Translations under genes and position numbers: made by a program
The notes under the pieces: generated by a model
The model's input: the letters and a program-made list of their open reading frames with translations, nothing else
What the model was told of the DNA's origin: nothing
Databases searched by the model: none
Part shown: one piece after another, positions 5,072 through 30,200 of the stretch
Numbering within the stretch: position 1 is the first letter of the stretch
Layout of the letters: each line of letters starts with the position of its first letter
DNA from: Thermococcus kodakarensis KOD1
GTDB lineage: Archaea; Methanobacteriota_B; Thermococci; Thermococcales; Thermococcaceae
DNA length: 32,000 nucleotides
Assembly: GCF_000009965.1 (NCBI RefSeq)
Contig: NC_006624.1
Location: 990,001-1,022,000, forward strand
Direction of reading: 5' to 3'

Positions 5072-5157
5072 GCCGCGGTAGCCTAGCCTGGTAGGGCGCC
5101 GGCCTGCTAAGCCGGTGGGCGGTGCCCACCGGGGTTCAAATCCCCGCCGCGGCGCCA
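5072..5157 (+). tRNA. tRNA-Ser(GCU): tRNA-Ser (anticodon GCU), long variable arm, genomically encoded CCA
   Basis: Cloverleaf folded by hand. Acceptor GCCGCGG/CCGCGGC. Anticodon stem CCGGC/GCCGG with loop CTGCTAA. Variable arm GGGC-GGT-GCCC. T arm CGGGG-TTCAAAT-CCCCG. Discriminator G followed by CCA. Confidence 0.93.
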
Positions 5158-5179
5158 GCTTACTTTCTTCGGGTTCAAT

Positions 5180-5254
5180 GCCGGGATAGCCTAGAGGCGA
5201 GGCGAGGGACTGCAGATCCCTTTCACCCGGGTTCAAATCCCGGTCCCGGCTCCA
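5180..5254 (+). tRNA. tRNA-Cys(GCA): tRNA-Cys (anticodon GCA), genomically encoded CCA
   Basis: Acceptor GCCGGGA/TCCCGGC. D stem GCCT/AGGC. Anticodon stem AGGGA/TCCCT with loop CTGCAGA. T arm CCGGG-TTCAAAT-CCCGG. Discriminator U (a Cys identity element) followed by CCA. It lies 22 nt after tRNA-Ser. Confidence 0.93.
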
Positions 5255-8469: not shown

Positions 8470-9210
8470 TCATCTCCTTGTGGGCTTTCTAGCATTCCCT
8501 TTGATATCCTCGTCAGTTACAAGGCCCTTCGCGTAGGGGCAGAACTCTCTCAGCGGACATTCTTCGCACTTGGGGTTTATCGGCCGGCAGATACTCCTTC
8601 CGTGGTCAACCATGGCGTGGTTGACGTATATCCACTTCTCCTTCGGGATGAGTGCAGTTAGGTACTCTTCGACCTTTTCAGGGGCAACCCTCGGCGGTGC
8701 CAGGCCCAACCTTTTGCTTATCCTGTTAACATGCGTATCCACTGGGATAGCCTGTTTTCCAAAGCCGTATGCCAGAACGATGTTCGCACACTTCCTCCCG
8801 ATTCCCGGGAGCTTCATAAGCTCGTGAATGTCATCCGGGACTTTTCCCCCGTACCTCTCAAGGATTATCTTGGAGGCCTTAACTATCCACTCGCCCTTCG
8901 TCTTCCAGAGGCCAACTCCCTGCTTTCTTAGAAACTCCTGCATCTCCTCGACGGGGGTGTTCGCTATTGTCTCAATGTCCTTATACTTCTTAAACAGCTC
9001 TTCCCAGACGCGGTAGGTTACCTCATCGCGCATCCTTTGGGAGATTATGCAGTGGACGAGCGTTCGGTAGGGGTCGCCGATTAGGAGCTTTTCCCTCGGG
9101 TGGGTCTTCATGAGGATTTCAACTATCTTCTCGGCCCGCTTTTTCTTTTCCTCCCAGCTCTCCTCAAAGGTGAAGCCCTCAAGGCTCAATGACCGTGACT
9201 TTGCTTCCAT
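8470..9210 (-). CDS. nth: endonuclease III (HhH-GPD DNA glycosylase/AP lyase, 4Fe-4S)
   Basis: HhH motif LMKLPGIGRKCANIVL and catalytic-region VDTHVNR. Cluster CRPINPKCEECPLREFC has C-X6-C-X2-C-X5-C spacing. Confidence 0.9.
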   Translation of the reverse strand: MEAKSRSLSLEGFTFEESWEEKKKRAEKIVEILMKTHPREKLLIGDPYRTLVHCIISQRMRDEVTYRVWEELFKKYKDIETIANTPVEEMQEFLRKQGVGLWKTKGEWIVKASKIILERYGGKVPDDIHELMKLPGIGRKCANIVLAYGFGKQAIPVDTHVNRISKRLGLAPPRVAPEKVEEYLTALIPKEKWIYVNHAMVDHGRSICRPINPKCEECPLREFCPYAKGLVTDEDIKGNARKPTRR

Positions 9211-9616
9211 GGACTACCACCACCTTCCCTTCTGCCACCCTAACTTCTTTCAGTTCCTCGAACTCCCTGCTATAAATCTTTTGCCCGCTCCAGTTGTAGA
9301 TTCGAACTTCGTTTTCGAGGACGATGACGAGACCTTTTGAGAAGGGGAGCACCTCCCGAACTTCTTCATCGAATTCGAGAGTTATCTCCTTCACCTCGCT
9401 TCTCGTTATCTCGATTCGGGTGTTTTTCGAGACCTTCATCGGGCTTGGATCGGCGAGGACAACTTTGTAGGCCAAAGGCCTCCCGAGGAGGTCTATCTCA
9501 ACCGTCTCGCCAGTTTTTACTTCTCTGCCCACTAATTTCGAACGGATAATCTCCTCAAAGCCAGCCGGGAGCTCAGCGTCGAAGAGGGGTTTGAGTACTA
9601 TCTTCATAGTCCCCAC
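9179..9616 (-). CDS. hypothetical protein with a Cdc48 N-domain (beta-clam, CDC48_2-like) segment
   Basis: 145 aa. LVGREVKTGETVEIDLLGRPLAYKVVLADPSPMKVSKNTRIEITRSEVKEI aligns with Cdc48 residues [52 protein letters not shown] encoded in this same window. The 3' end overlaps the nth start by 32 nt. Confidence 0.6.
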   Translation of the reverse strand: MGTMKIVLKPLFDAELPAGFEEIIRSKLVGREVKTGETVEIDLLGRPLAYKVVLADPSPMKVSKNTRIEITRSEVKEITLEFDEEVREVLPFSKGLVIVLENEVRIYNWSGQKIYSREFEELKEVRVAEGKVVVVHGSKVTVIEP

Positions 9617-9694: not shown

Positions 9695-10174
9695 GTGAAA
9701 GAAATGGAGAAGCCGAAGTTCAGGGGACACCTCAAACTCCTCGTTTTGAAACTCCTTGAGGAAGGTCCGCTCCACGGGTACGGCGTAATGGCGGAGCTTG
9801 AGAAGAGGTACGGCATGCCCCAGCCGAGCCCTGGGGCTATATACCCCATCCTAGCCTCCCTGAAGAGGTCAGGCCTCATTGAGGTCGCAGGTGAGGGAAA
9901 AAGGGAGAAGAAGCTCTACCGCATAACCGAGAAGGGAAGAGAGTACCTCAAAGAGCATGAATACGAGGTGAATGAAGCCATTGAGACCGCAGAGCGCTTT
10001 AGGGAGTTCGCCCGTCTCGGCGGCAGGGAGCTGGCGGAGGTTCTCAAAGAGACATTCAACTCGATCAACGAATTGGGTGAAGAGCAGAGAAGGGCCCTCG
10101 CGAAGGAATTTGCAGAGTTCACGAAGAGGGTTAGGTTAATTCTTTTGGGTGAGATAAAGGAGGGAACGGAATGA
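9695..10174 (+). CDS. PadR family transcriptional regulator
   Basis: Winged-HTH signature LKLLVLKLLEEGPLHGYGVMAELEKRYG...SPGAIYPILASLKRSGLIE plus a C-terminal coiled coil. The start is GTG 9695 or ATG 9704 and is probably near-leaderless. Confidence 0.85.
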   Translation: MKEMEKPKFRGHLKLLVLKLLEEGPLHGYGVMAELEKRYGMPQPSPGAIYPILASLKRSGLIEVAGEGKREKKLYRITEKGREYLKEHEYEVNEAIETAERFREFARLGGRELAEVLKETFNSINELGEEQRRALAKEFAEFTKRVRLILLGEIKEGTE

Positions 10175-11157
10175 GCGAAGCATTAGTTGTTGAGAACCTC
10201 GTTAAGAAGTACGGGGACTTTGAGGCCGTTAAAGGGGTCTCCTTTAAGGTTAAGAGGGGAGAGATATTCGCCTTCCTCGGGCCGAACGGGGCAGGGAAAA
10301 CAACCACCGTGCACGTTCTCACGACGCTTTTGAGGCCGACCTCGGGAAGGGCGATCGTCGCTGGCCACGACGTGGTTGAGGAGCCGATGGAGGTGAGGAA
10401 GAGGATAGGCATAGTCTTTCAGGATCCGAGCCTCGACAGGGAGCTTACCGCGTGGGAGAACATGTACATCCACGGGAGAATATACGGGCTGAAGGGGAGC
10501 GAACTGAGGGAGAAGATAGAGCGCCTCCTCAAGTTCGTCGAGCTCTGGGAGTTCAAGGACAAACCAGTCAAGACCTTCAGCGGCGGGATGCAGAGGAGGC
10601 TTGAGATAGCGCGCTCTCTCCTCCACGAGCCCGAGGTTCTCTTCCTTGATGAACCCACGATAGGCCTCGATCCGCAGACGAGGGCGCACATCTGGGACTA
10701 CATTCGCGCCATGAAGGAGGAGCACAATATGACGATTTTCCTCACGACTCACTACATGGACGAGGCGGAGATGTTAGCGGACAGGATAGCCATCATAGAC
10801 CACGGAAAGATAATTGCCGAGGGCACCGCGGAGAAGCTCAAAAAGCTCGTCGGAAACGACGTGATCTATTTTAAACTCGACGCTCCCGAAGAGCTCAAGT
10901 GCCTCGAAAGTGGCTTCATCAGGGGCTGTAAGGTTCTTCCCGACGGCAGGGTGGCGCTTGAGGTGGAAAACGCTGCCGAAGCGCTCCCGGGACTCTTCGA
11001 GCTCGCAAATGAGAGGGGCATCAGAATCCTCGAGGTCACCTACCACAGACCCACGCTCAACGACGTCTTCCTCCACCTGACTGGCAGGGAGATAAGGGAC
11101 GAAGGGCCGGAGAACCCGATGGCTTCCTTCGTGAGAATGAGGATGAGGAGGAGGTGA
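10171..11157 (+). CDS. ABC transporter ATP-binding protein (DrrA/ABC-2 exporter type)
   Basis: Walker A GPNGAGKTT, signature FSGGMQRRLE, Walker B VLFLDEPTIGLD, H-loop TTHYM. The ATG overlaps the PadR stop (ATGA). Confidence 0.9.
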   Translation: MSEALVVENLVKKYGDFEAVKGVSFKVKRGEIFAFLGPNGAGKTTTVHVLTTLLRPTSGRAIVAGHDVVEEPMEVRKRIGIVFQDPSLDRELTAWENMYIHGRIYGLKGSELREKIERLLKFVELWEFKDKPVKTFSGGMQRRLEIARSLLHEPEVLFLDEPTIGLDPQTRAHIWDYIRAMKEEHNMTIFLTTHYMDEAEMLADRIAIIDHGKIIAEGTAEKLKKLVGNDVIYFKLDAPEELKCLESGFIRGCKVLPDGRVALEVENAAEALPGLFELANERGIRILEVTYHRPTLNDVFLHLTGREIRDEGPENPMASFVRMRMRRR

Positions 11158-11161
11158 GAGG

Positions 11162-11932
11162 ATGGAGGCACTAACCACAATGGCCTACAGGCAGCTCAAG
11201 AGGTTCAGCAGGGCGAGGTCGAGGGTAATCGGGATGATAATCAACCCGCTCATCTGGCTCGTCTTCTTCGGCCTCGGGTGGAGCAAGGTCTTCGACAACC
11301 CCATGACGAAGATGATCTTTGGGGGAGTGGACTACTTAACGTTCCTCGCGCCAGGTATCTTTGCCATGACGGTCTTCAACATGAGCTTCATAGCAGGAGT
11401 AAGCGTTATCTGGGACAAGCAGTTCGGCTTTCTCAAGGAAGTCCTTGTTGCTCCCGCATCGAGGAGGGGGAGCATCCTGGGGAGGATAATCGGTGACTCA
11501 CTCGTGACGCTCGCTCAGGGAACGATAATCCTCACCCTCACCTACCCGCTCGCGGAGAGCCTCAAGCTGAGCGGATTCCTTCCGGCCCTCGGAGTCGGCT
11601 TCCTGCTCTCGATGGCCTTCTCGGGCTTTGGCGTCAGCCTGGCTTTGAAGATGGAGAGCATGGAGGGCTTCCAGATGGTGATGATGGTCCTCATGCTCCC
11701 GCTGACCTTCCTGAGCGGCGCGATATACCCAATAGACACCATGCCAGGCTGGATGAAGGCCTTAGCTTACATCAACCCGTTAACTTACGCCGTTGACGGC
11801 GCGAGGCACTTCCTCGTGGGGGCCAACGTTGCCAAGTTCTCGCTCGCCGTTGATTTAGGTGTTCTGACCGTCCTGGCGGCCCTCCTGGTGGGGCTGGCCA
11901 TGGTTGAGTTCGAGAGGGCAACGATAGGTTGA
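11162..11932 (+). CDS. ABC-2 type transporter permease
   Basis: 256 aa with six hydrophobic segments. Starts 4 nt after the ATPase stop. ABC-2 style N-terminus (YRQLKRFSRARSRVIGMIINPLIWL). Confidence 0.85.
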   Translation: MEALTTMAYRQLKRFSRARSRVIGMIINPLIWLVFFGLGWSKVFDNPMTKMIFGGVDYLTFLAPGIFAMTVFNMSFIAGVSVIWDKQFGFLKEVLVAPASRRGSILGRIIGDSLVTLAQGTIILTLTYPLAESLKLSGFLPALGVGFLLSMAFSGFGVSLALKMESMEGFQMVMMVLMLPLTFLSGAIYPIDTMPGWMKALAYINPLTYAVDGARHFLVGANVAKFSLAVDLGVLTVLAALLVGLAMVEFERATIG

Positions 11933-11946
11933 AGGGGAGGGCTCCC

Positions 11947-13182
11947 TCATTCTTTTACCCTGTCTTTGAACCTTTCGTAGCTTATCTTCAGCGCCTTCAG
12001 GACGGGGAGTTCCTCTCCCGCGAAGAAGCTCAGCATGGCCCCACCGCCCGTTGATATATGGCTTATTCCAGTGATGTTGTACCTGTAGATGCTTGCTATT
12101 GAATGGCCACCGCCCACCACCGAGAAGGCGGGGCTTTCGCCGATGGCCCTGAAAACACCGACCGTACCAACCGCAAATTCTTCCCTCTCAAAGACGCCCA
12201 TCGGGCCGTTAGCCACTATTATCTTTGCACCTATCAGTATCTCGCGGTACTTCTCCACGGTCCTTGAGCCTATGTCAAGGATGGGATACTGGTCAAACAG
12301 CCTCTTTTCGCCGCCCAGGAGATCAACCTCAAGGCGCTCGCCTTTGTAATCAATGGCAAAGTCCACAGGCGTTCTGACATAGGGATAGAACTCGTCGAGT
12401 ATCTTCTCCGCCCAGTCCACAAGCTCAAGGAGACCTTTCCTGTGAAGGAACTCTATGTTGGCATCCCCGAGGTCAAAGCCCTTAGCGAGCGTGAATATCT
12501 GCCCGACGAGACCACCAGTGAGGATGAGATCCGCTTTCCCCTTCCGCAGGACGTTCTCGGCAACGCGGAGGGAGTCATCTACCTTTGCACCGCCCAGGAC
12601 GTAAACTCTCGGCCTCTCCTCGCTCTCGTAAGCTTTGCTCAGTGCATCAACCTCCGTCTCCATAAGCTTCCCCATTATCATCGGCTTAAGGCGGGCGAAG
12701 CCGACGAGGGAGGGCTGGCTCCTGTGGGCAGTTGCAAAGGCATCGTTAACGACGTAGTCTATTAACGGCGCAAGCTTTCTCACGAAGAACGTCTTTTCGC
12801 ACTCCTCAATTGACCTGTTGAATACCTCTTCAGCTGAGAAGCGGAGGTTTTCGAGAATTATAGCCTCCCCTGGCTTCAGGGAGCTTATTCTCTCCCTGGC
12901 GTATTTCCCAAAGATGTCCTCGACGTATTCAACTTCCTGGCCGAGAAGTCTGCTCAGGATTTGGGCGTGCTCCTCGGTGGTTATGTAGTCCCCCTTGTAG
13001 GGTCTGCTCTGGTGGGTCGCTATCACGAGTTTCGCCCCGTTGTCGAGGAGGTGTTGAATCGTTGGTAAAACCGCCCGAAAGCGGGCGTCGCTCGTTATCC
13101 GTCCTTTTTCAACGGGGGAGTTAAGGTCAGCCCTCAGAAAAACGGTCTTTCCCTCGTAGGTGAAATCTGTGATTCTGAACAT
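11947..13182 (-). CDS. pgk: phosphoglycerate kinase (archaeal type)
   Basis: FLRADLNSPV, ATHQSRP, GGAKVDDS, STGGGA motifs. ATG at 13182 is preferred over the adjacent GTG at 13185. Confidence 0.92.
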   Translation of the reverse strand: MFRITDFTYEGKTVFLRADLNSPVEKGRITSDARFRAVLPTIQHLLDNGAKLVIATHQSRPYKGDYITTEEHAQILSRLLGQEVEYVEDIFGKYARERISSLKPGEAIILENLRFSAEEVFNRSIEECEKTFFVRKLAPLIDYVVNDAFATAHRSQPSLVGFARLKPMIMGKLMETEVDALSKAYESEERPRVYVLGGAKVDDSLRVAENVLRKGKADLILTGGLVGQIFTLAKGFDLGDANIEFLHRKGLLELVDWAEKILDEFYPYVRTPVDFAIDYKGERLEVDLLGGEKRLFDQYPILDIGSRTVEKYREILIGAKIIVANGPMGVFEREEFAVGTVGVFRAIGESPAFSVVGGGHSIASIYRYNITGISHISTGGGAMLSFFAGEELPVLKALKISYERFKDRVKE

Positions 13183-13200
13183 CACATCACCGAGAAAGTG

Positions 13201-13230
13201 TTAAATAGAGGTTTTAATAAAAGTTTATTT
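13201..13230. promoter_or_regulatory. shared AT-rich bidirectional promoter core between pgk and the nuclease-PepSY gene
   Basis: TTAAATAGAGGTTTTAATAAAAGTTTATTT gives TATA-like elements readable on both strands. It lies about 35-50 nt from each start codon. Confidence 0.45.
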
Positions 13231-13278
13231 GAACACTCTTGGTGGTTACAATCCAGAGTACATGAGGACGGTGAGAGG

Positions 13279-15411
13279 ATGCCTTGGACTCAGGACATCG
13301 TGAGGATGCTGTCCCGCGAGGATATCATTGAGTACTTAGCAGAAGTCCTTGATAAGATGGGATTCAGAAACCATGAGAAGGTTGCAGATCGGAGCAGGTG
13401 GGGTGTTGACATAGTAGCGGTAAGGGATGATCCGTTGGCGGGCACCGAAAAGCTTCTGATAAAGGTTCATACCGGATCGCTGGCATCTTCTAAAGAAGTT
13501 AGCGTTTTTGGCGATCTTATTGACAGATACAAAGCCGATAGAGGGATTCTTATATCTCCCCTGGGATTTACAAAGGACGCGAGAACAGTTGTTGCTAAAG
13601 AGTATAGGGCGAGGATTATACTCTGGGACGCCGAAAAGCTCGCGAAAACGTTTTCCAACTACGGGATCAAAGTTCCCGAAATCAAACCCCAAGAATCCGA
13701 GGAAAAAGCGGAAGAAACTCCCCTCACCAAGTTTGAGCTGGACGCGCCTCTCCTGTTTGAGTTTTCGCCAGAAGGGGTCCTCAAAGCCATAGCCAGGGAA
13801 GCCAGCAGAAAATATCCCATAAAGCCCGAGGACATAAAGATCTCCTTCCTCAAAGTGTATCTCTCGACGGCATACATAATTTCCTGGTCAGCGAGAGAGG
13901 GGGAGAGCGAAGAAAAGGGAAAAGCCCTGGTGTTCTCGGAAGAAAAAATAGTTTCCCAAGCTCAGTCAGACCCCAAACTGGCAACACCCGTTAAAAAAGC
14001 CCTTCTAAACGACAGGTCTGAGATATACGCAACTGAGAGAGAAATTGAATCCTCCCTCAGTCCCAGCGAATCCGTTCTTGTGCTTAAGAACACCCTTTCG
14101 GAGAAGCTCGGCGTTCCAGAGAGCAATATAACGATCCACGAGCGGAAAAAAGTGTACGTGCCCACAAAAGCGGAGGCCGAGCTTAAGGTGGGTGCCAACA
14201 GGGCGAGGGCTGTGGTGGATCCGAATACCAACGAAGTCCAGCTTGATGTGTCCGAATTGCCCGACGAGTACTTCCTGCAGACCGTTACAGAAATTCTCAT
14301 GGATAGAATCGGCGAGGAGCCCCTGGAGTCAAAGATTGAAAGGAACAACGGGAAGGTGAAGGTTTTTGGCAAAACCGAGCGCTTCAACTTCGAGTTCAAG
14401 TTCAACGGGTATACCGGTGCCGTGGTATATGAAGAATCCCTTATCACCGATGAGGCCCTCAGGGAGCTCATAAGCAACAAGTATCCAGCCGGAACCATTT
14501 TGGACATCGAGAAGGGCAAGAAGGTTGCGATTGTTGAGGTTGGGCTCAAAGAGGGCATAGTAATCCTCGAGGTCAACCTTGAGAACGGAGAGTTGAAAGA
14601 GATTACCACGCTTCCTTCGCCGGAGGAGGCCTTCAAAAAGGCAAAGCCGATAATAGAGAACAACTTCCCAGTGAAGAACCTGAAGCTGGTCTCCAGCAGA
14701 GTCCTCGAACACAAGTTCTTAGAGATAACAATGGAAGGAGAAGGTGGAAAGGCGACCGCAAAAATAGACGGGGATACAAAGGACGTCCTTGACTACTTCG
14801 TCGAGATTACACCTCAGAAGGCAGAAGAGCTTGTACTCGCCAAATATCCAGGCTACAGAACACTTGGCGTATCAGAATCGGACGAGGTTTACACGGTAGA
14901 AATAGAAAACGACAAGCATAAAGTTACCGTGAAGGCAACCAAGGACGGGAAGATCCTCGAAGAGGCAGACAGGGTTCTGAAAAAAGAAGTCGCCGAGAAA
15001 ATAGCGGAGGAGAAAGTTAAGGACATAGACGAAACCGCAGAGATAAAGGGGATAAGGCTAGACGGAGATTGGGTCGTTGAGTTCCAGGGAGGCAGCAAGG
15101 TCGGAAAGCTCGTACTCGACAGAAAAACGGGTGAGGTAAAGGAAGAAAACGTCAGGTTTACAGAGCTGGCGCTTGAAGAGGCTTTCCACGAACACCTGAA
15201 GAAGCTTTACGGAGAGACCGAGTTGAAGACGGAGAGGCTCACGCACTACAAGGAGGAAGGGTACATCCACATAAAGGTCGCAGGAAAGAACAGCCTTTAC
15301 TATGCGAGAATAGACACGAAAACCGGGAAAATACTGAGCGAGGACAGAGCGCCGATAAAAGGAATAACTGCAAAGCTGAAGCAGCTCCAGCTGGAGAGCA
15401 AGTACAAGTGA
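13279..15411 (+). CDS. Mrr-type (PD-(D/E)xK, Mrr_cat-like) nuclease domain fused to a tandem array of PepSY-like modules; no signal peptide or TM segment
   Basis: ATG 13279 follows GGTGAGAGG. The 13198 GTG in the ORF track lies inside the promoter. The N-terminus aligns with Mrr_cat (IIEYLAEVLDKMGF / WGVDIVAV / EKLLIKVHTG / ADRGILISPLGFTKDAR / IILWDAEKLAKTFSNYGIKV). The remaining roughly 570 aa are repeated helix+sheet modules ending in D/N-x-x-(T/N/D)-G-x-(I/V/L). Confidence 0.75.
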   Translation: MPWTQDIVRMLSREDIIEYLAEVLDKMGFRNHEKVADRSRWGVDIVAVRDDPLAGTEKLLIKVHTGSLASSKEVSVFGDLIDRYKADRGILISPLGFTKDARTVVAKEYRARIILWDAEKLAKTFSNYGIKVPEIKPQESEEKAEETPLTKFELDAPLLFEFSPEGVLKAIAREASRKYPIKPEDIKISFLKVYLSTAYIISWSAREGESEEKGKALVFSEEKIVSQAQSDPKLATPVKKALLNDRSEIYATEREIESSLSPSESVLVLKNTLSEKLGVPESNITIHERKKVYVPTKAEAELKVGANRARAVVDPNTNEVQLDVSELPDEYFLQTVTEILMDRIGEEPLESKIERNNGKVKVFGKTERFNFEFKFNGYTGAVVYEESLITDEALRELISNKYPAGTILDIEKGKKVAIVEVGLKEGIVILEVNLENGELKEITTLPSPEEAFKKAKPIIENNFPVKNLKLVSSRVLEHKFLEITMEGEGGKATAKIDGDTKDVLDYFVEITPQKAEELVLAKYPGYRTLGVSESDEVYTVEIENDKHKVTVKATKDGKILEEADRVLKKEVAEKIAEEKVKDIDETAEIKGIRLDGDWVVEFQGGSKVGKLVLDRKTGEVKEENVRFTELALEEAFHEHLKKLYGETELKTERLTHYKEEGYIHIKVAGKNSLYYARIDTKTGKILSEDRAPIKGITAKLKQLQLESKYK

Positions 15412-16029
15412 CTAGGCCATCAGCATGTTCTCTATCATTTTTATTGCTTCCACTATCTTCCTCTCGGGCTTCTCCTCGTTCTTTGGTATCTCAAGGTTTA
15501 TGACGAGCCTCTCTTCCTTGCTGTCCTCGAAGTCGTAGATTTCAAGCTCCTCGACCTCAACGTCCTCGAAGATGCTCTCCAGTTCGGGGCTAAGCACCTT
15601 TTTGTCGTTGCCGTAAACCTCAACGCGGACTATATCGTCAGTCGTTGAGGCCACAACAACTATCTCGTAGGGGCCAACCTTCTTGGTGAAGCGGAAAGCG
15701 TTTCCATAGCCCTCAACGTCCTCTTTAAACCCAAGCTGAAGCATCGTGCTCCTTATGGCTTCGGTCTTGCTCTTTATCCTGTTTAAAACTCTCTCACGGA
15801 GCTTGTAGCTCTCCTCAAGGGCCTTCTTTATACCCTCACCCGCTTTCTCAACCGGGCCTTCCCATATGCCGATGATCTTGATACCTGAAGAAGTCGGCTT
15901 AAGCTCAATCTTAAGGGAATCAACGTCAAAGTCTCGCAGGTCGTCTATCTTAAGCTCGCCGAGGGTGAGTATATCAAACTCAATCCTCACGACGTTTCCA
16001 AAGGCTTTACCTTTGAACTTCACCCCCAT
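15412..16029 (-). CDS. hypothetical protein (205 aa from ATG 16029)
   Basis: Complete ORF with host-like codon usage. TATA-like GGTTTTTAAACC on the minus strand (about 16058-16069) lies roughly 30 nt upstream of ATG 16029, so the mRNA is probably leaderless. The track start at 16035 is TTG. No family recognised. Its stop codon directly abuts the stop of the convergent gene. Confidence 0.6.
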   Translation of the reverse strand: MGVKFKGKAFGNVVRIEFDILTLGELKIDDLRDFDVDSLKIELKPTSSGIKIIGIWEGPVEKAGEGIKKALEESYKLRERVLNRIKSKTEAIRSTMLQLGFKEDVEGYGNAFRFTKKVGPYEIVVVASTTDDIVRVEVYGNDKKVLSPELESIFEDVEVEELEIYDFEDSKEERLVINLEIPKNEEKPERKIVEAIKMIENMLMA

Positions 16030-16146
16030 CACCAAGAGCGGCTTGAAGCGTCGGTTTAAAAACCTTCTGTGTGATGAGGGCGAAAAATTTTCACAAATGT
16101 GGTGGCCTGCAAAAGTCGTAGAAATTGAGGGAGAAAAAGAAAGCCT

Positions 16147-17923: not shown

Positions 17924-20137
17924 TCAGCCGAGGCGCCGTTCGAGAGCAATGACCACCACCAACAGGAGGGCCAGGAGAGCCACTGTTAGCTCGCCGGAGT
18001 ACTTCCCAATGCCGCTCACTGAAACGGGAACTTCCTTCGCTGTCATAGTTAGAGAAACGTTCCCTGTGCCAATTATGGATATGGCTACGAAATCCTCGTA
18101 TGGCCTTAGAGGAACTTCTCCCGACACATGCTCCCCTTTACCTCTGAAAGCCCCCTTGAAATCAGCGGAGAGCGGGTCAAAGTCTTCCCTCTCCCTGTTG
18201 AGGGTGAAGTAATAGACCCTAACCTCAACCGGCCGATCAGCGTTAACATCAAGGGCAAGCTTCTTCCCGCGGAGCGATGTAGCGTTTAGGATGAACGTCT
18301 TAATTCCCTCTCCGAACTGCTTTGGAAGGAGCTCAAAGCTGATGTTCTCAGGCTTCCTGAGGTAATCCGCAACAAGAAGAACGGCGTCGAACCTGTCGCC
18401 CTCGAGCATAAGCATGAAATCAGACTCGTTGAACACTACAAAATCTGGCCTTCCCTTCCCCTGGCTTGAGGAGTGCAGAATCTCCCCACTCGAAGAGAGA
18501 ACGTGAAGGGTGATGTCCAGCCCTGAGCGGACGTAATTGCCGTATGAGAAGGCTATCTTCTCCCCAGGATAGTGTTCGAACTGAATCGGTGGGGTCAGAG
18601 ACTTAGCGGCGACTCGGTATGGAATTCCTACAAAGTGCGTCTCGGCGGTAAAGTTCATCTTCGCCAGCCAGTTGTCGCCGTAAACGGGCAGGAACGCCAG
18701 ACCGTATGCCTCGAACTCCAGAGGGATTACATGCAGGTTTCCATTCTCGTCCCTGACTGTTACGTTGAATCCGACTGGCACACCAACGGAGAATCCCCTG
18801 GGCAGAGAGGGCACGTCAATAACCAGAACCACCTGGGCCGAGCCGTCCACGTTAAGCTCCTCGACCTCGCTTTCCCCGGAGTAGAACTTCCAGCCAACCG
18901 ACTCCGGAAGGCCTTCGACGCCAAGCTTCACCCTGCCCGAACCGGAGAGAACGAGTGCATAGCTGCCCTTTCCACCGAGGGGGACTTTTATACTCGTTGA
19001 GAGCGCCTCGACCGAGATGCCGGAAGCGCCAGCCTCGGCCGTGAAGGAGAAAGTTCCCGAGTCGGAGGAAGCTAGGATGGTTGGATACCTAACCTCCTCG
19101 GGAACCTTGAAGGTCAGCGAGACGCTCTCCCCTGGCCCTATGGAGACCTCTGAATATGTTGGACTTCCCACCACAACGCCGTTTTGGGTCACGCTGACGA
19201 AACCCCTGAAAGGAGACTCCCCCGTGTTTTTGAGGACAACCCTGAGATGCTCCCCCTCCCTGGAGATGTTTTCGAGAACCAGAAGCGCCGGCCTGAAGTA
19301 GAAGGTCTGCTGGATTACTTTTCCGTAATCAACCACTACCGCTCCCTGGTTTATAAAGTTGGAGAACTCCACCCAGCTGGTTCCCCGCTGGAGCAGGATT
19401 TTCTTCGACTCCAAAACCATGTTACTGCTGTAAAGGAGGCTGAAGGTGGCGTTAACCGGGTCGCCTTTGTTAAGAACCTTTACCTTAACACCTTTACTGC
19501 CCGTTATTTCCTCGATTTCAACCTGAGGCTCTAAGGTTCCAAGGAAAACATCCTTTGAGATGCCCTTCTCCTTTAGACTAAAGACCAGCGTCTGGCCCGG
19601 GTTTGGAACCTTGAAAACTATCTCTTCGCCTGGTGCAAGGTTCAGCTCCACTTCCTTTAGGACAGTGCTTGAGGAAATGGGAAAAGCGCCTTGAGAAGAC
19701 GACGAAACAGAAAGAGTGTCGTTGAGCGGATAAAAGCCCGTGTTTTTAATCTTTACCTTGGCGTAGGTGTCGAAGGCTTCTATGACCTCAACACCGAAGT
19801 CGTACTTCTTCATAACTCTCACGCTTGTATAGTTGCCGAGTATGTGAGCGGTGAGCCTCTGGTTCTGGCGGTCGTATGAGCCGATGACGTAAGTCACGTT
19901 GCCCACTGTGATGTTTTCGCCGAAAGCGAGAACGGAATACGTTTCTTCTCCATGACTCGAAACGCTCACGAGGAACCTGTCCCCGCTCTGGCCGGGGTCA
20001 AAGGTAAAGACCTGGCCGTCCACTATGAGGACTTCATCGATTCCTACTTCAATGGAAAGAGCTGTAGCCTGCCCGGCCAGCAGGATGAGGAGGAAGACCG
20101 CGAAAGTGAGGGTTTTCACGCGCGCCATCGTTCTCAT
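17924..20137 (-). CDS. large extracytoplasmic protein with N-terminal signal/anchor, CARDB-like beta modules and a C-terminal TM anchor; third gene of an ABC operon
   Basis: 737 aa. N-terminus TLTFAVFLLILLAGQATALS; C-terminus ELTVALLALLLVVVIALERRLG. Recurrent KNTG/LNKG beta-sandwich-type motifs (KVKIKNTGFYPLNDTLSV, VKVKVLNKGDPVNATFSL, LRVVLKNTGESPFRGFVSV). 12 N-x-S/T sequons by my count. The ATG overlaps the permease stop (ATGA). Confidence 0.7.
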   Translation of the reverse strand: MRTMARVKTLTFAVFLLILLAGQATALSIEVGIDEVLIVDGQVFTFDPGQSGDRFLVSVSSHGEETYSVLAFGENITVGNVTYVIGSYDRQNQRLTAHILGNYTSVRVMKKYDFGVEVIEAFDTYAKVKIKNTGFYPLNDTLSVSSSSQGAFPISSSTVLKEVELNLAPGEEIVFKVPNPGQTLVFSLKEKGISKDVFLGTLEPQVEIEEITGSKGVKVKVLNKGDPVNATFSLLYSSNMVLESKKILLQRGTSWVEFSNFINQGAVVVDYGKVIQQTFYFRPALLVLENISREGEHLRVVLKNTGESPFRGFVSVTQNGVVVGSPTYSEVSIGPGESVSLTFKVPEEVRYPTILASSDSGTFSFTAEAGASGISVEALSTSIKVPLGGKGSYALVLSGSGRVKLGVEGLPESVGWKFYSGESEVEELNVDGSAQVVLVIDVPSLPRGFSVGVPVGFNVTVRDENGNLHVIPLEFEAYGLAFLPVYGDNWLAKMNFTAETHFVGIPYRVAAKSLTPPIQFEHYPGEKIAFSYGNYVRSGLDITLHVLSSSGEILHSSSQGKGRPDFVVFNESDFMLMLEGDRFDAVLLVADYLRKPENISFELLPKQFGEGIKTFILNATSLRGKKLALDVNADRPVEVRVYYFTLNREREDFDPLSADFKGAFRGKGEHVSGEVPLRPYEDFVAISIIGTGNVSLTMTAKEVPVSVSGIGKYSGELTVALLALLLVVVIALERRLG

Positions 20138-20952
20138 CCCCTGTACTCCCTTCTGTAAAGCCCGAGGATCGCAAGCATCAGGCTCAGGAGCATGACCGAT
20201 GCGAAGAACACCAGCGTCGTTGACGGGTCGCCCTTGTAGACGTCAAGCCCCGTGTGGAGCGTGAACCTGTCCCTCAAGAGAACTCCGAGCTGGTAGTTGA
20301 GCGTGAACCTCTCGGGGTCGTCGAAGAAAGGCAACTGCGGGAGGATGAACTGGGCGACGAATATCACTCCAAAGCTCGCCAGAGAGGCGTAGAGGGGCCT
20401 CGAAAGAACCACTGAGAGGGCCATTGCGAACGCTCCTAGAGAGCCGAGCAGGAGGATGGTCACCTCAAGGGAGTAGAGCAGGTCACCGAACGTCGCCCTA
20501 AGGCCGGTGAAACCTTGCTTGTAAAGCAGAACCATATAAATCTGCATGACCAGGTAGGGCAGTCCGAAGACCACCAACATTCCCGTAAGCCCGCCGAGGA
20601 ACTTTCCGATGACGAGTTCGCTCTTTCTAACGGGTTTCGTCAGGAGAACCCTTATCGTACCCTTGTCTATCTCGCTTCCAAGGAGTTCGCTCATCAGGAT
20701 TATGACCACGAGCTGGCCTATGACGCTCGCCCAGAAGTTGACGAGGTAAGTGGAGAAGTTAACCTGGAAGGATATCCTGAGCGCGCGCGTGCTGTACTCG
20801 GTGATCTCTTCGTGGGTGAAGAAGTAGACGACAACTGGGAGGAACATCAGGAGGGTCATGAGCTTGAGGCGGCGGGAGCGCAGTAACCTTTTCACTTCCA
20901 TCCCGTATATTATCCCGAGCCGCGATTCAAAGGAAAAGTGAGAATCTTTCAA
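20134..20952 (-). CDS. ABC-2 family permease (NosY/GldF-like subfamily)
   Basis: 272 aa with six hydrophobic segments and the N-terminal motif MEVKRLLRSRRL. The TTG start at 20952 is preceded by GAGGAGGTG at about 7 nt, and lies 3 nt after the ATPase stop. Confidence 0.8.
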   Translation of the reverse strand: MKDSHFSFESRLGIIYGMEVKRLLRSRRLKLMTLLMFLPVVVYFFTHEEITEYSTRALRISFQVNFSTYLVNFWASVIGQLVVIILMSELLGSEIDKGTIRVLLTKPVRKSELVIGKFLGGLTGMLVVFGLPYLVMQIYMVLLYKQGFTGLRATFGDLLYSLEVTILLLGSLGAFAMALSVVLSRPLYASLASFGVIFVAQFILPQLPFFDDPERFTLNYQLGVLLRDRFTLHTGLDVYKGDPSTTLVFFASVMLLSLMLAILGLYRREYRG

Positions 20953-20955
20953 ACT

Positions 20956-21894
20956 TCACACCTCCTCGCCCACTCCAAACTTCTCCATCAGGATTCTCTC
21001 AAGCGGACTCGTGTGCGGCCTGAAGAGCTTCAGTCTGATGCCGTTTTCCACGAGGTACTTCGGAAAGGCCAGGAAGAACTCGTCAAGAAAGCGCGGATCA
21101 ACTTTGACCCTGAGGATTCCCTCCTCTTCCCAGGCCTCACGGATGTAGGGCTTCTCACGCAGGAACGCCATCGCCTTTCCATTGTCGCTGGTCAGAACGT
21201 CGTAGTCGTCCTCCTCAATGCTCGCAAGCTCCCTGACCCTGCCCTGGGCGAGCATCGTACCGCGGTTTATCAGCCCGACGTAGTTGCACATTTTCTCGAC
21301 CTCGCTGACTATGTGGGAGCTTATGAAGATCGTCTTGCCTGCCTTGGCGAGCTGGATGACCTTCCCAATAAACTCCATTCTCCCGAGGGGGTCGAGGTTC
21401 GCTGTTGGTTCATCCAGTATGAGGAGCTCTGGGTTTCCCATCAGCGCCGCGGCGAAGCTCGCCCTCTGCTTCTGACCGGAGGAAAGCTCCCCAATCCTGT
21501 TCATGGCCAGCTTACCAATTCCAGCGTACTCCATAAGCTCCTTCGCCTGCTCCATGGCGTCTTCCTTCTTCATACCAGCCAGGCGGCCCATATAGACCAG
21601 AAACTCGAAAATCGTCATGTCTTCATAAGCTATCGGCACCTCGGGCATGTATCCGACCCGCTTCATGATCTCAACCCTGTCGTTGGGCATCCTCAGGCCA
21701 AAAATCCGTATCTCGCCGTAGGTAGGCCTCAGTGCCCCGGTCAGCATCTTTATAGTGGTCGTTTTTCCCGCACCGTTTGGCCCGAGGAAGCCGTAAACGA
21801 CCCCCTTAGGCACTTTGAGGTTGAGGTGGTACACTACGTTCCTCTTGCCGAAGAACTTGGTGAGCTTGTTTGTTTCTATGACGTAAGTTCCCAT
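20956..21894 (-). CDS. ABC transporter ATP-binding protein
   Basis: Walker A GPNGAGKTT, signature LSSGQKQR, Walker B LLILDEPTANLD, H-loop SSHIV. ATG 21894 is preferred; the ORF track's 21906 is a TTG. Confidence 0.9.
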   Translation of the reverse strand: MGTYVIETNKLTKFFGKRNVVYHLNLKVPKGVVYGFLGPNGAGKTTTIKMLTGALRPTYGEIRIFGLRMPNDRVEIMKRVGYMPEVPIAYEDMTIFEFLVYMGRLAGMKKEDAMEQAKELMEYAGIGKLAMNRIGELSSGQKQRASFAAALMGNPELLILDEPTANLDPLGRMEFIGKVIQLAKAGKTIFISSHIVSEVEKMCNYVGLINRGTMLAQGRVRELASIEEDDYDVLTSDNGKAMAFLREKPYIREAWEEEGILRVKVDPRFLDEFFLAFPKYLVENGIRLKLFRPHTSPLERILMEKFGVGEEV

Positions 21895-21957
21895 CTCAAC
21901 ACCCAAAGGAACATCGAAACGAAATTAGTTAAAGGTTTCGGCATTACTCTCTAACCG

Positions 21958-27201: not shown

Positions 27202-27224
27202 TTTATCTCTTTTTGAGCTCTTTT
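27202..27224 (+). terminator. oligo-T zone after cdc48
   Basis: TTTATCTCTTTTTGAGCTCTTTT, with a T5 at 27210-27214. It overlaps the TTG 27213 start proposed by the ORF track for the next gene. Confidence 0.4.
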
Positions 27225-30200
27225 GAACTCGACCGTGGAGATAACATTTTAAGCCTTCCAGTTGAAACCTTTGCGGTGGTGCTTTTGGAGAACCTGGAAC
27301 AGGTTTATGAGAGGATAAAACTGGCCGCTAAACAGGCCTCAAATGAGGAGGAACTGCGGCACAACGTTTCTAAGGTTCTTGATGAGATTGCGAGAGAATT
27401 TGGAGTATCTGGCAGGCTGGAGAAGTCAACTCAGCTCCTTGAATCAAAGAAGGTCTTTAGGGGCAGGATAGACGCCCTCTATGGCGGTGTTATTATAGAG
27501 TACAAGTCTCCAGGAAAACTGAAGGAAAAGCAGGCATTTAACTCCGCCCTCGACCAGGTCATAAACTACATCAAATCAGAGGCCAAAAGCGAGGAGTTTT
27601 ATCCGTATTACCTTGGAGTGCTCTTCGACGGTTCAACGATAGCGTTTGTTAGGTACTGGGGAGGCAGTTTCAAGGTCAACGGCCCGCTTCCGTTCACGTT
27701 TGAGGCCTTTGAGCACCTCGTTGATGCCCTCAGGGGCCTGACGAGGAAGCCCCTCGATGCGGAGATGCTTTTGAGGGACTTTGGGCCAAAAAGCCGGATA
27801 ACGGAAGAAGTCCTCAGAGCGTTCTATAGCGCCCTTGAGTCGCCAAAATCGGATAGAACTGAGATGCTCTTTGAGGACTGGAGGAGGATATTCTCCCAGG
27901 TCTGCTCCTACACCCCGGAGAAGCTGAAGAAGCTGGCCGAGTTCTACGGGTTCAAGGAGGCCGACCCCGAGAGGCTGACCTTCGCACTGCACACCTACTA
28001 CACCCTTCTGATGAAGCTCATCGTCAGCGAGATAGTCAGCGTCCTCTCGGAGGGCCTGACTGGTTCCGTACTGGCGAGGCTCAACGAGAGCTACCTGAGC
28101 GATGTTGAGTCCTTCAGGTTCGTGCTCACCGAGCTTGAGGACGGGGGACTGTTCAGACAGCTGGGCATAAGGAACTTCCTGGAAGCGGACTACTTCGCCT
28201 GGTACCTTGAGGAGTGGAGCGGAGAGGTGGCTAGGGCAGTTTATGAAATCACTAAGGCACTCATGGACTACGAACCCGCGACAGTTGAACAAACCCCTGA
28301 GAGGGTGGAAGACCTCTTCAAGAGGCTCTACCAGAACCTCGTCCCGAGGGAGATAAGGCACAGCCTCGGGGAGTACTTTACGCCCGACTGGCTCGCGGAG
28401 CTGACGCTGGACGAAGCTGGTTACGATGGAAACCCCGAAAAGAGGGTTCTCGACCCGGCCTGCGGCTCCGGGACTTTCCTCGTGCTGGCGATAAAGAGGG
28501 CGAAGGAGTGGGGGCTGAGGCACTGGGGAACCTCTGCCGATGCCCAGCTCCGGCTCCTTGAGTCAATAACGAGCAACATAGTCGGGATAGACCTCAACCC
28601 GCTGGCAGTCCTGGCGGCGAGGGGCAACTATCTCATCGCCCTCGGGAAGCTCATACGCTACAGGGTTGACGACATCACGATACCAGTTTATCTAGCCGAC
28701 TCGATAACAGTAAGTACGAAAACATCAGCCAGGGGAGGCAAGAGGATAGCCCTCAAGACGGTTGCCGGTGAGTTCGAGGTTCCCAAGGAGGTCATAGACT
28801 CAAAGCTGATGGACAAGGTTTTCCAGGCCATAGAGGACGGCCTGAGGCGGAACATGAAGAAGGGGCAGTTCATCGTTTACCTTCACATGAAGCTCGGCGG
28901 AAAGAGGCTTAGCGACGATACCATTGATGCCATCTCCGTTCTGTACGAGAAACTGTGGAAGCTTGAGCAGGAGGGCAAGGATAGGATATGGACGAGGGTT
29001 CTGAGGAACGCCTTCGCACCGCTCACGATAGGGAACTTCGACTTCGTGATCGGGAACCCGCCGTGGATAAACTGGGAGAGCCTGCCAGAGAACTATCGAG
29101 AGCTGACGAAACCGCTCTGGGAGTACTACGGGCTTGAAAAAGGCTCGGGTAAGGGTATGGGCAGGGTAAAGAGGGACATGAGCATGCTCTTCGTCGCGAG
29201 GACATTCGACCGCTACCTCAAGCCCGGCGGGAGGCTGGCCTTTCTTGTTCCCTTCACGCTCTTCAAAACGCAGGCGGGAGCGGGATTCAGAAGGTTCCTC
29301 ACCTACGGAAGAAGACGGGAGCCGAGGATACCCGTTAAGCTCCTGAAGGTTCACGACCTCGTTACACTTTACCCCTTCGAGGGGGCCACCACGAGGACTG
29401 GCCTATTGGTCATCGAGAAGACCGAGAAGACCGAGTTCCCGGTTCCGTTGATTGTCTGGAACTGGCCGGACACCAGGGGGGCGGACGTTGAGGCAACCCT
29501 TGAAGAAGTGAAGGAAAAGGCGGCGATTCACCAGCTCGTCTTCATGCCGATCGAGGAGGGGAAGCCAGAGAGCCCGTGGATGATGACGACGGTGAAGGCC
29601 TACGAGGGGCTTAAGAAAGCTTTGGGGAGCTCGGAGTATAGGGCCTATGCTGGAGTTTTTACAGGATTAGATGGAGCTTACTGGGTTGAAATTATTCGTG
29701 AAGTTGCCCCAGGGAGAGTACTAATTCAGAATGTCGGTAAAACCATGAAAAAGTCTATCAAAAGAGTCCAGAAAGTTGTAGAAACAGATCTTATATTTCC
29801 AGTTCTACGCGGAAAGAATGCAAAAAAATGGTACTGCAACCCAGAAGGGTGGATACTCCTGCCAATAGACAAAAACGGTGATATCATTCCACCTTCAGAG
29901 CTCAAACTCAAGTATCCACTGACATATGATTTCTTTACAGCGCTCCTAGATGAACTCATAAGCAGAAATGCAGAACCCTTTAAAACAAAGTTAAGAATTT
30001 ACAAGGAAAAGCCAATTGAAATAGCAGAAAGATCAGGAATGCCTTTCTATGCAGTCCTTAACTCACAAGTCTCAATAGCTCCATACAAAGTTGGTTGGAA
30101 ACATATATCCGGAGCTATAAGCGGAAAAGCCCAATTGGATGTTTTCGTGATACCAACTTTACAGGACAAACCAATGATTCCAACTCATGGCATTATGCAC

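Follow-up and report, generated by a model that had tools for sequence, protein, structure and literature searches.

A Thermococcus kodakarensis protein combining a motif-substituted Mrr-type nuclease head with a predicted cytoplasmic array of PepSY modules

The stretch analyzed here, hereafter the window, comprises 32,000 nucleotides of the Thermococcus kodakarensis KOD1 chromosome (contig NC_006624.1, positions 990,001 to 1,022,000 of the forward strand; all coordinates below count from its first letter) and is ordinary chromosome, with genes for SurE, SerRS, endonuclease III, PGK, methylmalonyl-CoA mutase, and CDC48. Our subject is a monocistronic plus-strand gene, divergent from pgk and convergent with orf207 (a gene for a protein of 207 amino acids, aa), that encodes an N-terminal domain of the Mrr nuclease type (the head), followed by a linker, a tandem array of PepSY modules (the rod), and a short tail; we refer to it as Mrr-PepSY. 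The open reading frame (ORF) spans positions 13198 (GTG) to 15411, with the stop codon at 15411. A start of the form M-x-W is common to all 56 homologues found in a search of 5.8 billion proteins, which places the start codon at ATG 13279 and yields a product of 710 aa (80 kDa, isoelectric point 5.4, zero cysteines). The TATA-like elements listed in Table 1 are a putative archaeal promoter, inside the 93-bp intergenic region between the divergent pgk and Mrr-PepSY genes. A first-pass annotation, made from the letters alone, had proposed a cytoplasmic Mrr-type nuclease domain fused through an acidic linker to an array of PepSY-like modules, and all of the peptides it quoted are present in the translated ORF. 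The NCBIfam search of the 710-aa protein gave no match, and neither did PDB sequence searches that used the full protein and the head alone as queries.

The assignment of the head is clear: the Mrr_cat profile (PF04471) matches aa 11-123 with 51 bits, compared to a gathering score of 21 (E = 1.8e-13), and is matched by all 34 aligned Thermococcales orthologues. In the AlphaFold2 (AF2) model, the head elements (helix 13-27, strands 31-34, 45-51, and 55-63, helix 71-83, strand 88-92; predicted local distance difference test, pLDDT, 71-93) follow each other as alpha-beta-beta-beta-alpha-beta, i.e., in the order seen in PD-(D/E)xK nucleases, as judged by element order without three-dimensional superposition. 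The head has a mean pairwise identity of 59%, more than any other large domain of the protein; E33, D44, R49, D51, P52, G55, E57, K58, and the run F97-T98-K99-D100 are invariant in the 34 orthologues, and G96 and A101 are kept in 32 of them. The Mrr_N winged-helix DNA reader had no match in the Pfam scan of the window protein, in which the catalytic-type domain sits N-terminally.

The catalytic motif is substituted. The first-pass annotation had read K-V-H at the place of the (E/Q)-x-K of Mrr enzymes and had suspected a variant or inactive site. This reading holds in a gapless alignment with relatives that carry EVK or QVK, and the substitution turns out to be a property of the whole clade: position 62 is K in 12 orthologues, A in 15, L in 4, V in 2, and R in 1, with E, Q, and D never found, whereas position 64 is H in 30 and K in 4. 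Opposite KLLIKVHTG of the window protein, the bacterial relatives have RIVVEVKHR at identical D-to-E spacing, and their G-K-D-I-V-A-S...G-G-F-T-K-D-A-R corresponds to G-V-D-I-V-A-V...L-G-F-T-K-D-A-R. The window protein has retained D44 and the GFTKDA signature, the catalytic E/Q is replaced by K, and the catalytic K by H, so that the canonical D...(E/Q)-x-K triad is incomplete in 34 of 34 orthologues. A further profile, NA-iREase1 (PF22722), reaches 24.8 bits in the window protein compared to a threshold of 27, and gives sub-threshold-to-threshold matches in all 34 orthologues. We rejected this match as a sign of inactivity because a PDC-S02 protein with a canonical EVK scores equally (24 bits), which is indicative of a clan cross-match.

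The head is followed by a linker that is acidic and flexible, as the first-pass annotation had stated: pLDDT is below 50 at aa 136-146, and aa 131-146 vary in length, with a mean pairwise identity of 34%. Beyond it, the AF2 model (pLDDT 88.8) contains nine units across aa 147-694. The last six of these, M3-M8 (aa 326-692), are units of 57-67 aa that each consist of one helix and then four antiparallel strands, and the gap from the last strand to the helix of the next module is only 1-3 residues. Since the modules are joined by such short linkers, a semi-rigid rod is expected. Three variant units, M0, M1, and M2, precede M3 at aa 147-325. An independent model of the M5+M6 fragment (pLDDT 91.8; predicted template modeling score, pTM, 0.75) had as its top Foldseek matches in the PDB the structures 4exr (the tandem-PepSY lipoprotein CD1622, E = 2.8e-4), 4fr9 (BLIP-like), 5boi (the C-terminal PepSY triplet of YpeB), and 4k61 and 3u1w (DUF2874/PepSY_like). 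By contrast, the top 50 PDB matches of the whole chain were beta-propellers (prolyl oligopeptidases, DPP4) at E of about 1e-8; these were rejected, as the TM-scores are 0.07-0.12 and the root mean square deviations 30-41 A, and are a 3Di artefact of the repeated four-strand meanders. A Foldseek search of the BFVD viral structures gave nothing at E <= 1e-3.

At the sequence level, the signal is absent from simple comparisons and emerges from profiles. A BLASTP self-comparison of the 710-aa protein found no repeats, the repeats being too old for pairwise detection. Family profiles compared by hhalign do align the modules with each other in register (M4-M6 84%, M6-M7 54%, M2-M4 41%, M7-M8 39%), which points to ancient tandem duplication. 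The window protein alone stays below the Pfam PepSY (PF03413) gathering score of 24, with 11.2 bits and E = 0.48 on M8, and its PepSY_like match on M6 has E = 0.51. However, PepSY is matched at E <= 0.01 by 16 of 34 orthologues (best E 1e-6) and PepSY_like by 7 of 34, on M6; among the ten orthologues listed, five exceed 24 bits for PepSY (P0034, 29.4; P0035, 29.2; P0042, 27.8; P0036, 26.7; P0007, 25.4). The best PepSY stretches of the orthologues map to M5, M6, and M8. The array profile also retrieved P0090, a bona fide secreted protein with five PepSY domains (Pfam PepSY 4.8e-71). Against six repeats of P0090, hhalign gave 93-97% for M3, M6, and M7 (individual values, with the lower one of M5, in Table 1), compared to at most 3.7% in reversed-sequence controls; M2 gave 2.6%, and no sequence link to the P0090 repeats was found for M0, M1, and M2. 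We therefore treat the assignment of the six modules M3-M8 as predicted PepSY homologues as solid at the family level. The first-pass annotation had counted seven hairpins, which correspond to M2-M8; its head-to-tail array stands for M3-M8 by sequence, whereas for M2 the resemblance to PepSY is confined to the fold and the hairpin motif. M0 and M1 share the general alpha/beta character, without a sequence link.

Table 1. Coordinates in the window of the Mrr-PepSY gene, its upstream elements, and the parts of its product
Feature	Position	Strand	Basis or remark
A/T-rich TATA-like elements TTTTAATAAAAG, TTTATTTG	13212..13231	+	48-67 nt upstream of ATG 13279
Shine-Dalgarno-like run GGTGAGAGG	13270..13278	+	Directly 5' of ATG 13279 (sequence reading)
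Complete coding sequence	13279..15411	+	710 aa plus stop codon
Head, Mrr_cat-type PD-(D/E)xK fold (aa 1-130)	13279..13668	+	Pfam, AF2, alignments
D44 codon, retained 'PD' aspartate (G-x-D-I-V-A)	13408..13410	+	Invariant in 34/34; aligns with D of bacterial and distant archaeal relatives
K62-V63-H64 codons, in place of canonical (E/Q)-x-K	13462..13470	+	Relatives show EVK or QVK at the same spacing
Acidic disordered variable linker PEIKPQESEEKAEETP (aa 131-146)	13669..13716	+	AF2 pLDDT, alignment
M0 (aa 147-220): strand, helix, long hairpin, strand; conserved LDAPLL, AYIxSWS; without PepSY sequence match	13717..13938	+	
M1 (aa 221-259): small helix plus hairpin insert	13939..14055	+	AF2
M2 (aa 260-325): helix and sheet, RKKVYVP, D-x-N-T-N-E-V hairpin; resembles PepSY in fold and motif only	14056..14253	+	
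M3 (aa 326-389): PepSY homologue	14254..14445	+	93.5% over 53 columns; helix and four strands
M4 (aa 390-446): PepSY-like via M6	14446..14616	+	M4-M6 84%; helix and four strands
M5 (aa 447-510): PepSY homologue, DGxTGDVLDY hairpin	14617..14808	+	38% in register, 50 columns; Pfam stretches of P0035, P0042
M6 (aa 511-567): PepSY homologue, SKDGK hairpin	14809..14979	+	93.9%; Pfam PepSY/PepSY_like stretches of P0007, P0034, P0036, P0052
M7 (aa 568-627): PepSY homologue	14980..15159	+	96.5%, E = 8.6e-10, 55 columns
M8 (aa 628-694): PepSY homologue YYARIDTKTGKI	15160..15360	+	Pfam PepSY stretch 633-689 in P0036; weak match 644-688 in the window protein
Conserved basic C-terminal tail GITAKLKQLQLESKYK (aa 695-710)	15361..15408	+	Alignment

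The family is narrow, since a search of 1.84 billion representatives with a profile hidden Markov model of the array found only 37 proteins. Its members fall into three grades by the state of the catalytic site. The first grade (P0062, P0067, P0069, P0075, and P0084, the last from a Korarchaeota/Thermoproteota metagenome-assembled genome, MAG) is rare and distant, with about 20% identity over the full length; these proteins share the head-linker-array-tail architecture, carry the canonical Mrr D...Q-V/C-K-R, and have heads that match Mrr_cat with 84-119 bits. P0062 and P0075, the two that were scanned with PADLOC, match mREase_IV at about 1e-15. The second grade is the Thermococcus/Pyrococcus clade that includes the window protein, in which the motif is substituted. 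The third is a Thermococcus subfamily of 677-716 aa (P0064, which is TAM4_643 of Thermococcus sp. AM4; P0114 of T. nautili; P0065/P0102, which is PWQ95_1433 of a MAG; and P0060) that lacks D44, the beta3 motif, and GFTKDA, has no Mrr_cat match, and keeps the array and the tail. A single MAG encodes both a second-grade protein (PWQ95_25) and a third-grade protein (PWQ95_1433) at different loci; thus, the two grades are paralogues. Because the rod persists in paralogues that have no nuclease motif, its function appears to be independent of the nuclease, and in our opinion this is the strongest argument that the Thermococcales function needs no classical cleavage.

The tail is the most conserved segment of all, with 68% mean pairwise identity and the pattern K-G-phi-x-x-K-phi-K...L-E-x-K-Y-K. 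It is recognizable even in the 20%-identical relatives P0062, P0067, P0069, and P0075 and in P0064, and is present in all three grades. Two candidate roles for it were considered. A membrane-targeting amphipathic helix was rejected because its hydrophobic moment of 0.08 ranks at the 7th percentile among the 16-mers of the protein itself, and a PCNA-interacting PIP box, seen by eye as (Q/R/K)-x-Q-L-E-x-K-Y, is unsupported, as the position of the PIP glutamine varies and there is no double aromatic.

Several side observations concern the loci of the distant and third-grade homologues. P0060 (loci L085 and L086) is flanked by AdoHcy hydrolase and an epimerase-like gene of 312 aa, and a 312-aa gene, for which no Pfam match is recorded, lies downstream of P0064 (L084), too. 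Beside the low-GC homologue P0067, a divergent gene encodes a 363-aa protein (L081, 1224-2315, minus strand) with a C-terminal HxK...SANL pattern that recalls PLD/HKD nucleases; this is the only context that hints at a nuclease or defence neighborhood. A gene for an Asp/Glu racemase is directly downstream of P0075 on two contigs and two genes away from P0062 (L082, 2941-3666; L083, 3674-4399; L087, 7643-8389), an adjacency that may be a coincidence.

The first-pass annotation had also noted that the protein has neither a signal peptide nor a transmembrane segment, and the simple tests that we applied agree. In 19-residue Kyte-Doolittle windows, no transmembrane or signal-like hydrophobic segment was found; the maximum of 1.53 lies within a beta-strand, and the N-terminus is polar. 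The 710 aa contain one N-x-S/T sequon, compared to 12 in the 737 aa of a neighboring predicted secreted protein and two each in cytoplasmic neighbors. Together, hydropathy, sequon count, and the non-amphipathic tail all point to the cytoplasm. As for the neighbor itself, the 737-aa protein has no family match and lies within 17924-21906 on the minus strand, with a signal-like N-terminus, a hydrophobic C-terminal anchor, and genes for an ABC-2 permease and an ABC ATPase upstream in the same orientation; it may be an exported protein of a transporter operon.

We surveyed the locus by a contig scan that yielded 12 Thermococcus loci, all from MAGs. The order pgk (minus), Mrr-PepSY (plus), orf207 (minus) holds in 12 of 12, and the genes for PadR, an ABC-2 transporter, and endonuclease III are usually found upstream. 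The near neighbors in the window are PGK, methylmalonyl-CoA mutase, and the ABC-2 transporter, and no methyltransferase, ATPase, defence, or mobile-element neighbors were found at this locus. Distant homologues likewise lie among housekeeping genes (RNase J, polyprenyl synthase, AdoHcy hydrolase, ribosomal proteins). orf207 (15412-16035, minus strand) abuts the stop codon of Mrr-PepSY, has the same position in 12 of 12 loci with 63-91% identity, has no Pfam or NCBIfam match, and is absent beside the distant homologues.

Mrr-PepSY diverges 4-9 times faster than pgk. Between the window and locus L008, amino-acid identity is 95% for pgk and 66% for Mrr-PepSY, and the nonsynonymous divergence (dN) is 0.027 and 0.24, respectively; between loci L001 and L002, dN is 0.046 and 0.20. 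In the comparison with L008, nucleotide identity of 85-96% over 9781-13230 drops abruptly to 62-69% across the gene (compared stretch 13231-15315). The distances of Mrr-PepSY and pgk are largely congruent (Spearman 0.94), with one clear exception: on the side of pgk, the locus nearest to the window is L008 (95% identity of pgk, compared to 84% for L001), and on the side of orf207 the nearest are L001 and L002 (91% identity of orf207 with L001, compared to 77% with L008), suggesting a recombination breakpoint at or in the Mrr-PepSY gene. The ratio of nonsynonymous to synonymous divergence (omega), taken from one unsaturated pair, is 0.10 (head 0.14, array 0.10), the same as for pgk. Synonymous divergence is apparently elevated in mid-distance pairs, but NG86 estimates are near saturation there and, thus, were not relied on. 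The gene is constrained, under purifying selection, yet fast-evolving; this pattern fits ligand-tracking or conflict-related proteins, although it is not specific to them.

It should be noted that an ORF of 250 codons runs antisense inside the coding sequence (13962-14714, minus strand). Its product would be rich in serine and leucine, the gene on the opposite strand is under purifying selection, and we regard the ORF as almost certainly a shadow ORF. Elsewhere in the window, positions 27213-30656 (plus strand) encode a 1147-aa Eco57I-like/N6_Mtase protein that matches the methyltransferase models BREX PglX and MADS2 weakly and in part; it is probably a restriction-modification enzyme of type IIG, unrelated to Mrr-PepSY and 12 kb away. 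A 145-aa protein with a CDC48 domain-2-like fold and DUF6849 (9179-9616, minus strand) adjoins endonuclease III and has been kept in the syntenic loci, and genes for tRNA-Ser(GCT) and tRNA-Cys(GCA) lie in tandem at 5072-5254 (plus strand).

In our reading, Mrr-PepSY is a lineage-specific, modular protein of the cytoplasm that probably derives from a fusion of an active Mrr-type nuclease with a PepSY array. The reading of its function that we tentatively prefer, at somewhat less than an even chance, is that the head is a domesticated, probably non-cleaving DNA-binding module, the rod is a multivalent protein-binding device, and the whole protein is an adaptor or sensor linking the binding of one or several protein ligands to DNA. 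Under this scenario, an ancestral active Mrr-PepSY nuclease, which would survive in other archaea, gave rise to the Thermococcus derivative. Its head, on a flexible acidic leash of about 16 residues, would bind DNA and have at most a weak or altered nuclease activity; the stiff rod of about 550 residues would be a platform for several partner proteins; and binding of these ligands would be coupled to DNA, so that the protein would not be a classical restriction enzyme. The head is taken to bind DNA because it descends from the DNA-cleaving Mrr domain, and the rod to bind proteins because the binding and holding of partners is the only documented molecular activity of PepSY and BLIP-like domains. 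Such domains bind partners and often hold them inactive, as in M4 propeptides, in YpeB with SleB, and in BLIP.

Several points weigh against this interpretation. To our knowledge, every characterized PepSY protein is extracytoplasmic, and a protein-binding role of PepSY in the cytoplasm is without precedent. DNA binding by the head is suggested by fold ancestry, and the inter-module geometry of the full AF2 model, with a pTM of 0.51, is uncertain. There is no operon partner at the locus. Finally, the clade-invariant residues D44, E33, D51, E57, K58, H64, and T98-K99-D100 could form a relocated active site.

This last point leads to the alternative that survives best, i.e., that the head is a remodeled active nuclease with D44, the clade-invariant E33 in strand beta1, H64, and K58 as its candidate center. 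In that case, the protein would be a single-polypeptide effector of the defence type, in which the PepSY rod senses an invader protein or a perturbation and gates cleavage. PD-(D/E)xK enzymes are known to shift catalytic residues, and E33 is invariant only in the clade that lacks E/Q62, the QxK-retaining relatives having Q, R, S, E, and R there; this is as expected for a relocated acidic residue, which E33 could mark. The conservation of the head under purifying selection, its closest relatives, which are PDC-S02 defence candidates and type IV methyl-directed restriction endonucleases, the fast divergence with a sharp drop of identity at the gene boundary, as in many conflict genes, and a weak fold resemblance of the tandem modules to the N-terminal repeats of RnlA/RNase LS are all compatible with an active enzyme. 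Conversely, the canonical beta3 position has neither an acid nor Q in any of the 34 orthologues, the paralogues drop the whole motif and keep the rest, and the locus is fixed and vertically inherited among housekeeping genes, without genes for a methyltransferase, an ATPase, or mobile elements, and with distances that largely follow those of pgk. We consider an active nuclease possible but, on balance, unlikely.

A broader proposal is that Mrr-PepSY represents an undescribed archaeal class of single-polypeptide sensor-effectors, in which a cytoplasmic PepSY array would recognize foreign (e.g., viral) proteins and control the Mrr-type head, the Korarchaeota-type members being active nucleases and the Thermococcus clade being remodeled or domesticated, with conflict-like diversification at a fixed locus. 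Rapid divergence, together with relatives in other archaea that keep the active motif, fits a conflict-related origin; the hypothesis of a defence-like sensor nevertheless has the fixed locus, the lack of defence neighbors, and the lost catalytic E/Q against it, and we rate the proposal as a whole as distinctly unlikely.

We find it improbable that the protein is a structural or metal-binding cytoplasmic rod (a spacer, a scaffold, or a cation-binding acidic array) with the head as an oligomerization or anchoring knob. M3-M7 are net acidic (-2 to -5 per module), the linkers of 1-3 residues suggest stiffness, the calcium-binding BLIP-like protein 3u1w is among the fold matches, and lanpepsy, described as a PepSY metal binder (PMC9988556), would be a precedent. 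However, acidic composition is common in Thermococcus proteins, the alignment contains no conserved carboxylate cluster beyond the D/G residues of the PepSY hairpin, and the retained D44 and GFTKDA would be left unexplained.

Very improbable is a location in the envelope or outside the cell, reached by non-classical export, with the Mrr-like domain as a decayed remnant that has no role at DNA. Such a location would agree with that of all characterized PepSY proteins and with the nature of the fold matches (lipoproteins, YpeB, periplasmic proteins), rapid divergence is typical of surface proteins, and the head motifs do decay progressively across the family. Yet hydropathy reveals no signal peptide, transmembrane segment, or C-terminal sorting helix, the sequon count is far from that of the neighboring secreted protein, neither the non-amphipathic tail nor the strongly conserved head speaks for export, and the intact Mrr QxK site of the distant relatives only makes sense near DNA. 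Finally, that the protein is simply a restriction endonuclease of type II or IV, the reading conveyed by the NCBI and UniRef names ('restriction endonuclease', 'predicted type II restriction endonuclease') and the Pfam Mrr_cat match, is scarcely tenable, as the label derives only from that match of 115 residues, (E/Q)xK is absent, there is neither a cognate methyltransferase nor Mrr_N, the PepSY array makes up 80% of the protein, and the sole restriction-modification-like gene of the window is 12 kb off and self-contained.

No PepSY array before Mrr-PepSY would have been predicted to act in the cytoplasm, and this one is fused to a restriction-nuclease fold; it is also the longest tandem PepSY array met in the present analysis. 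With its catalytic site intact (QxK), substituted, or erased, the family is a natural series for nuclease exaptation, and for about 50 Thermococcales proteins the label 'restriction endonuclease' probably misleads. Should the rod be a protein sensor, it would be a new sensor type for archaeal conflict systems; if it is a scaffold, the protein would be a new lineage-specific DNA-associated structural protein of hyperthermophiles.

Compared to known systems, the head is closest to two groups of restriction-type proteins. With Mrr and the type IV methyl-directed restriction endonucleases (PF04471; PADLOC mREase_IV), it shares the PD-(D/E)xK Mrr_cat fold, G-x-D, and G-F-T-x-x-A; unlike in Mrr, the catalytic-type domain is N-terminal rather than C-terminal and comes without Mrr_N, the Thermococcus clade has K/A/L/V/R-x-H/K for (E/Q)xK, and 550 residues of PepSY modules follow the head. 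Outside the family, the head is nearest in sequence to the PADLOC defence candidates PDC-S02 (found, e.g., in Klebsiella, Citrobacter, and Polaromonas). These bacterial proteins are about 335 aa long, share 29-35% identity with the head over aa 5-128, have the same spacing from D to E, and carry GGFTKDAR; they differ in having their own N-terminal domain of about 190 aa, a canonical D...EVK, and no PepSY array. Whereas a bacterial relative matches the PDC-S02 model end to end (E = 1.5e-81), aa 18-128 of the window protein match only model positions 212-322 of 346. NA-iREase1, the NACHT-associated inactive restriction endonuclease, is a precedent for a decayed domain of the Mrr clan reused in a larger modular protein; the window protein, however, has no NACHT/STAND NTPase and scores below the gathering threshold of that family.

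For the rod, the comparison is with tandem PepSY and BLIP-like proteins. The Bacillus spore protein YpeB, with three C-terminal PepSY domains (5boi), and CD1622 (4exr) have the same head-to-tail arrangement, but are membrane-anchored or secreted and have 2-3 modules, whereas the window protein has 8-9, no export signal, and a head of nuclease fold. The PepSY domains of YpeB are described as keeping its partner enzyme SleB inactive (bioRxiv 10.64898/2026.06.01.729290). The PepSY_like/BLIP-like DUF2874 proteins (PF11396; 4fr9, 4k61, 3u1w) share the tandem unit of a helix and a four-stranded antiparallel sheet; these Bacteroides proteins are periplasmic, have two units, and lack an enzymatic or DNA-related domain. 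The RnlA/RNase LS toxin (6y2r) is similar in being a cytoplasmic defence nuclease with tandem small alpha/beta repeats, and different in that its nuclease is of the HEPN type, not PD-(D/E)xK, and that it has two repeats only; its Foldseek matches are weak (E of about 1e-2 in the PDB, 1.6e-3 in BFVD), and we take this marginal similarity as a lead, not a relationship. Searches of the literature on PepSY with Mrr, Thermococcus, or archaea, and with the accessions and locus tags, found no description of an Mrr-PepSY fusion, in line with the first-pass annotation, which had seen in it a candidate for an undescribed system. The whole protein belongs to neither Mrr, PDC-S02, NA-iREase1-NACHT, nor any restriction-modification system; both of its building blocks, Mrr_cat and PepSY, are well known, and its novelty is in their combination and setting.

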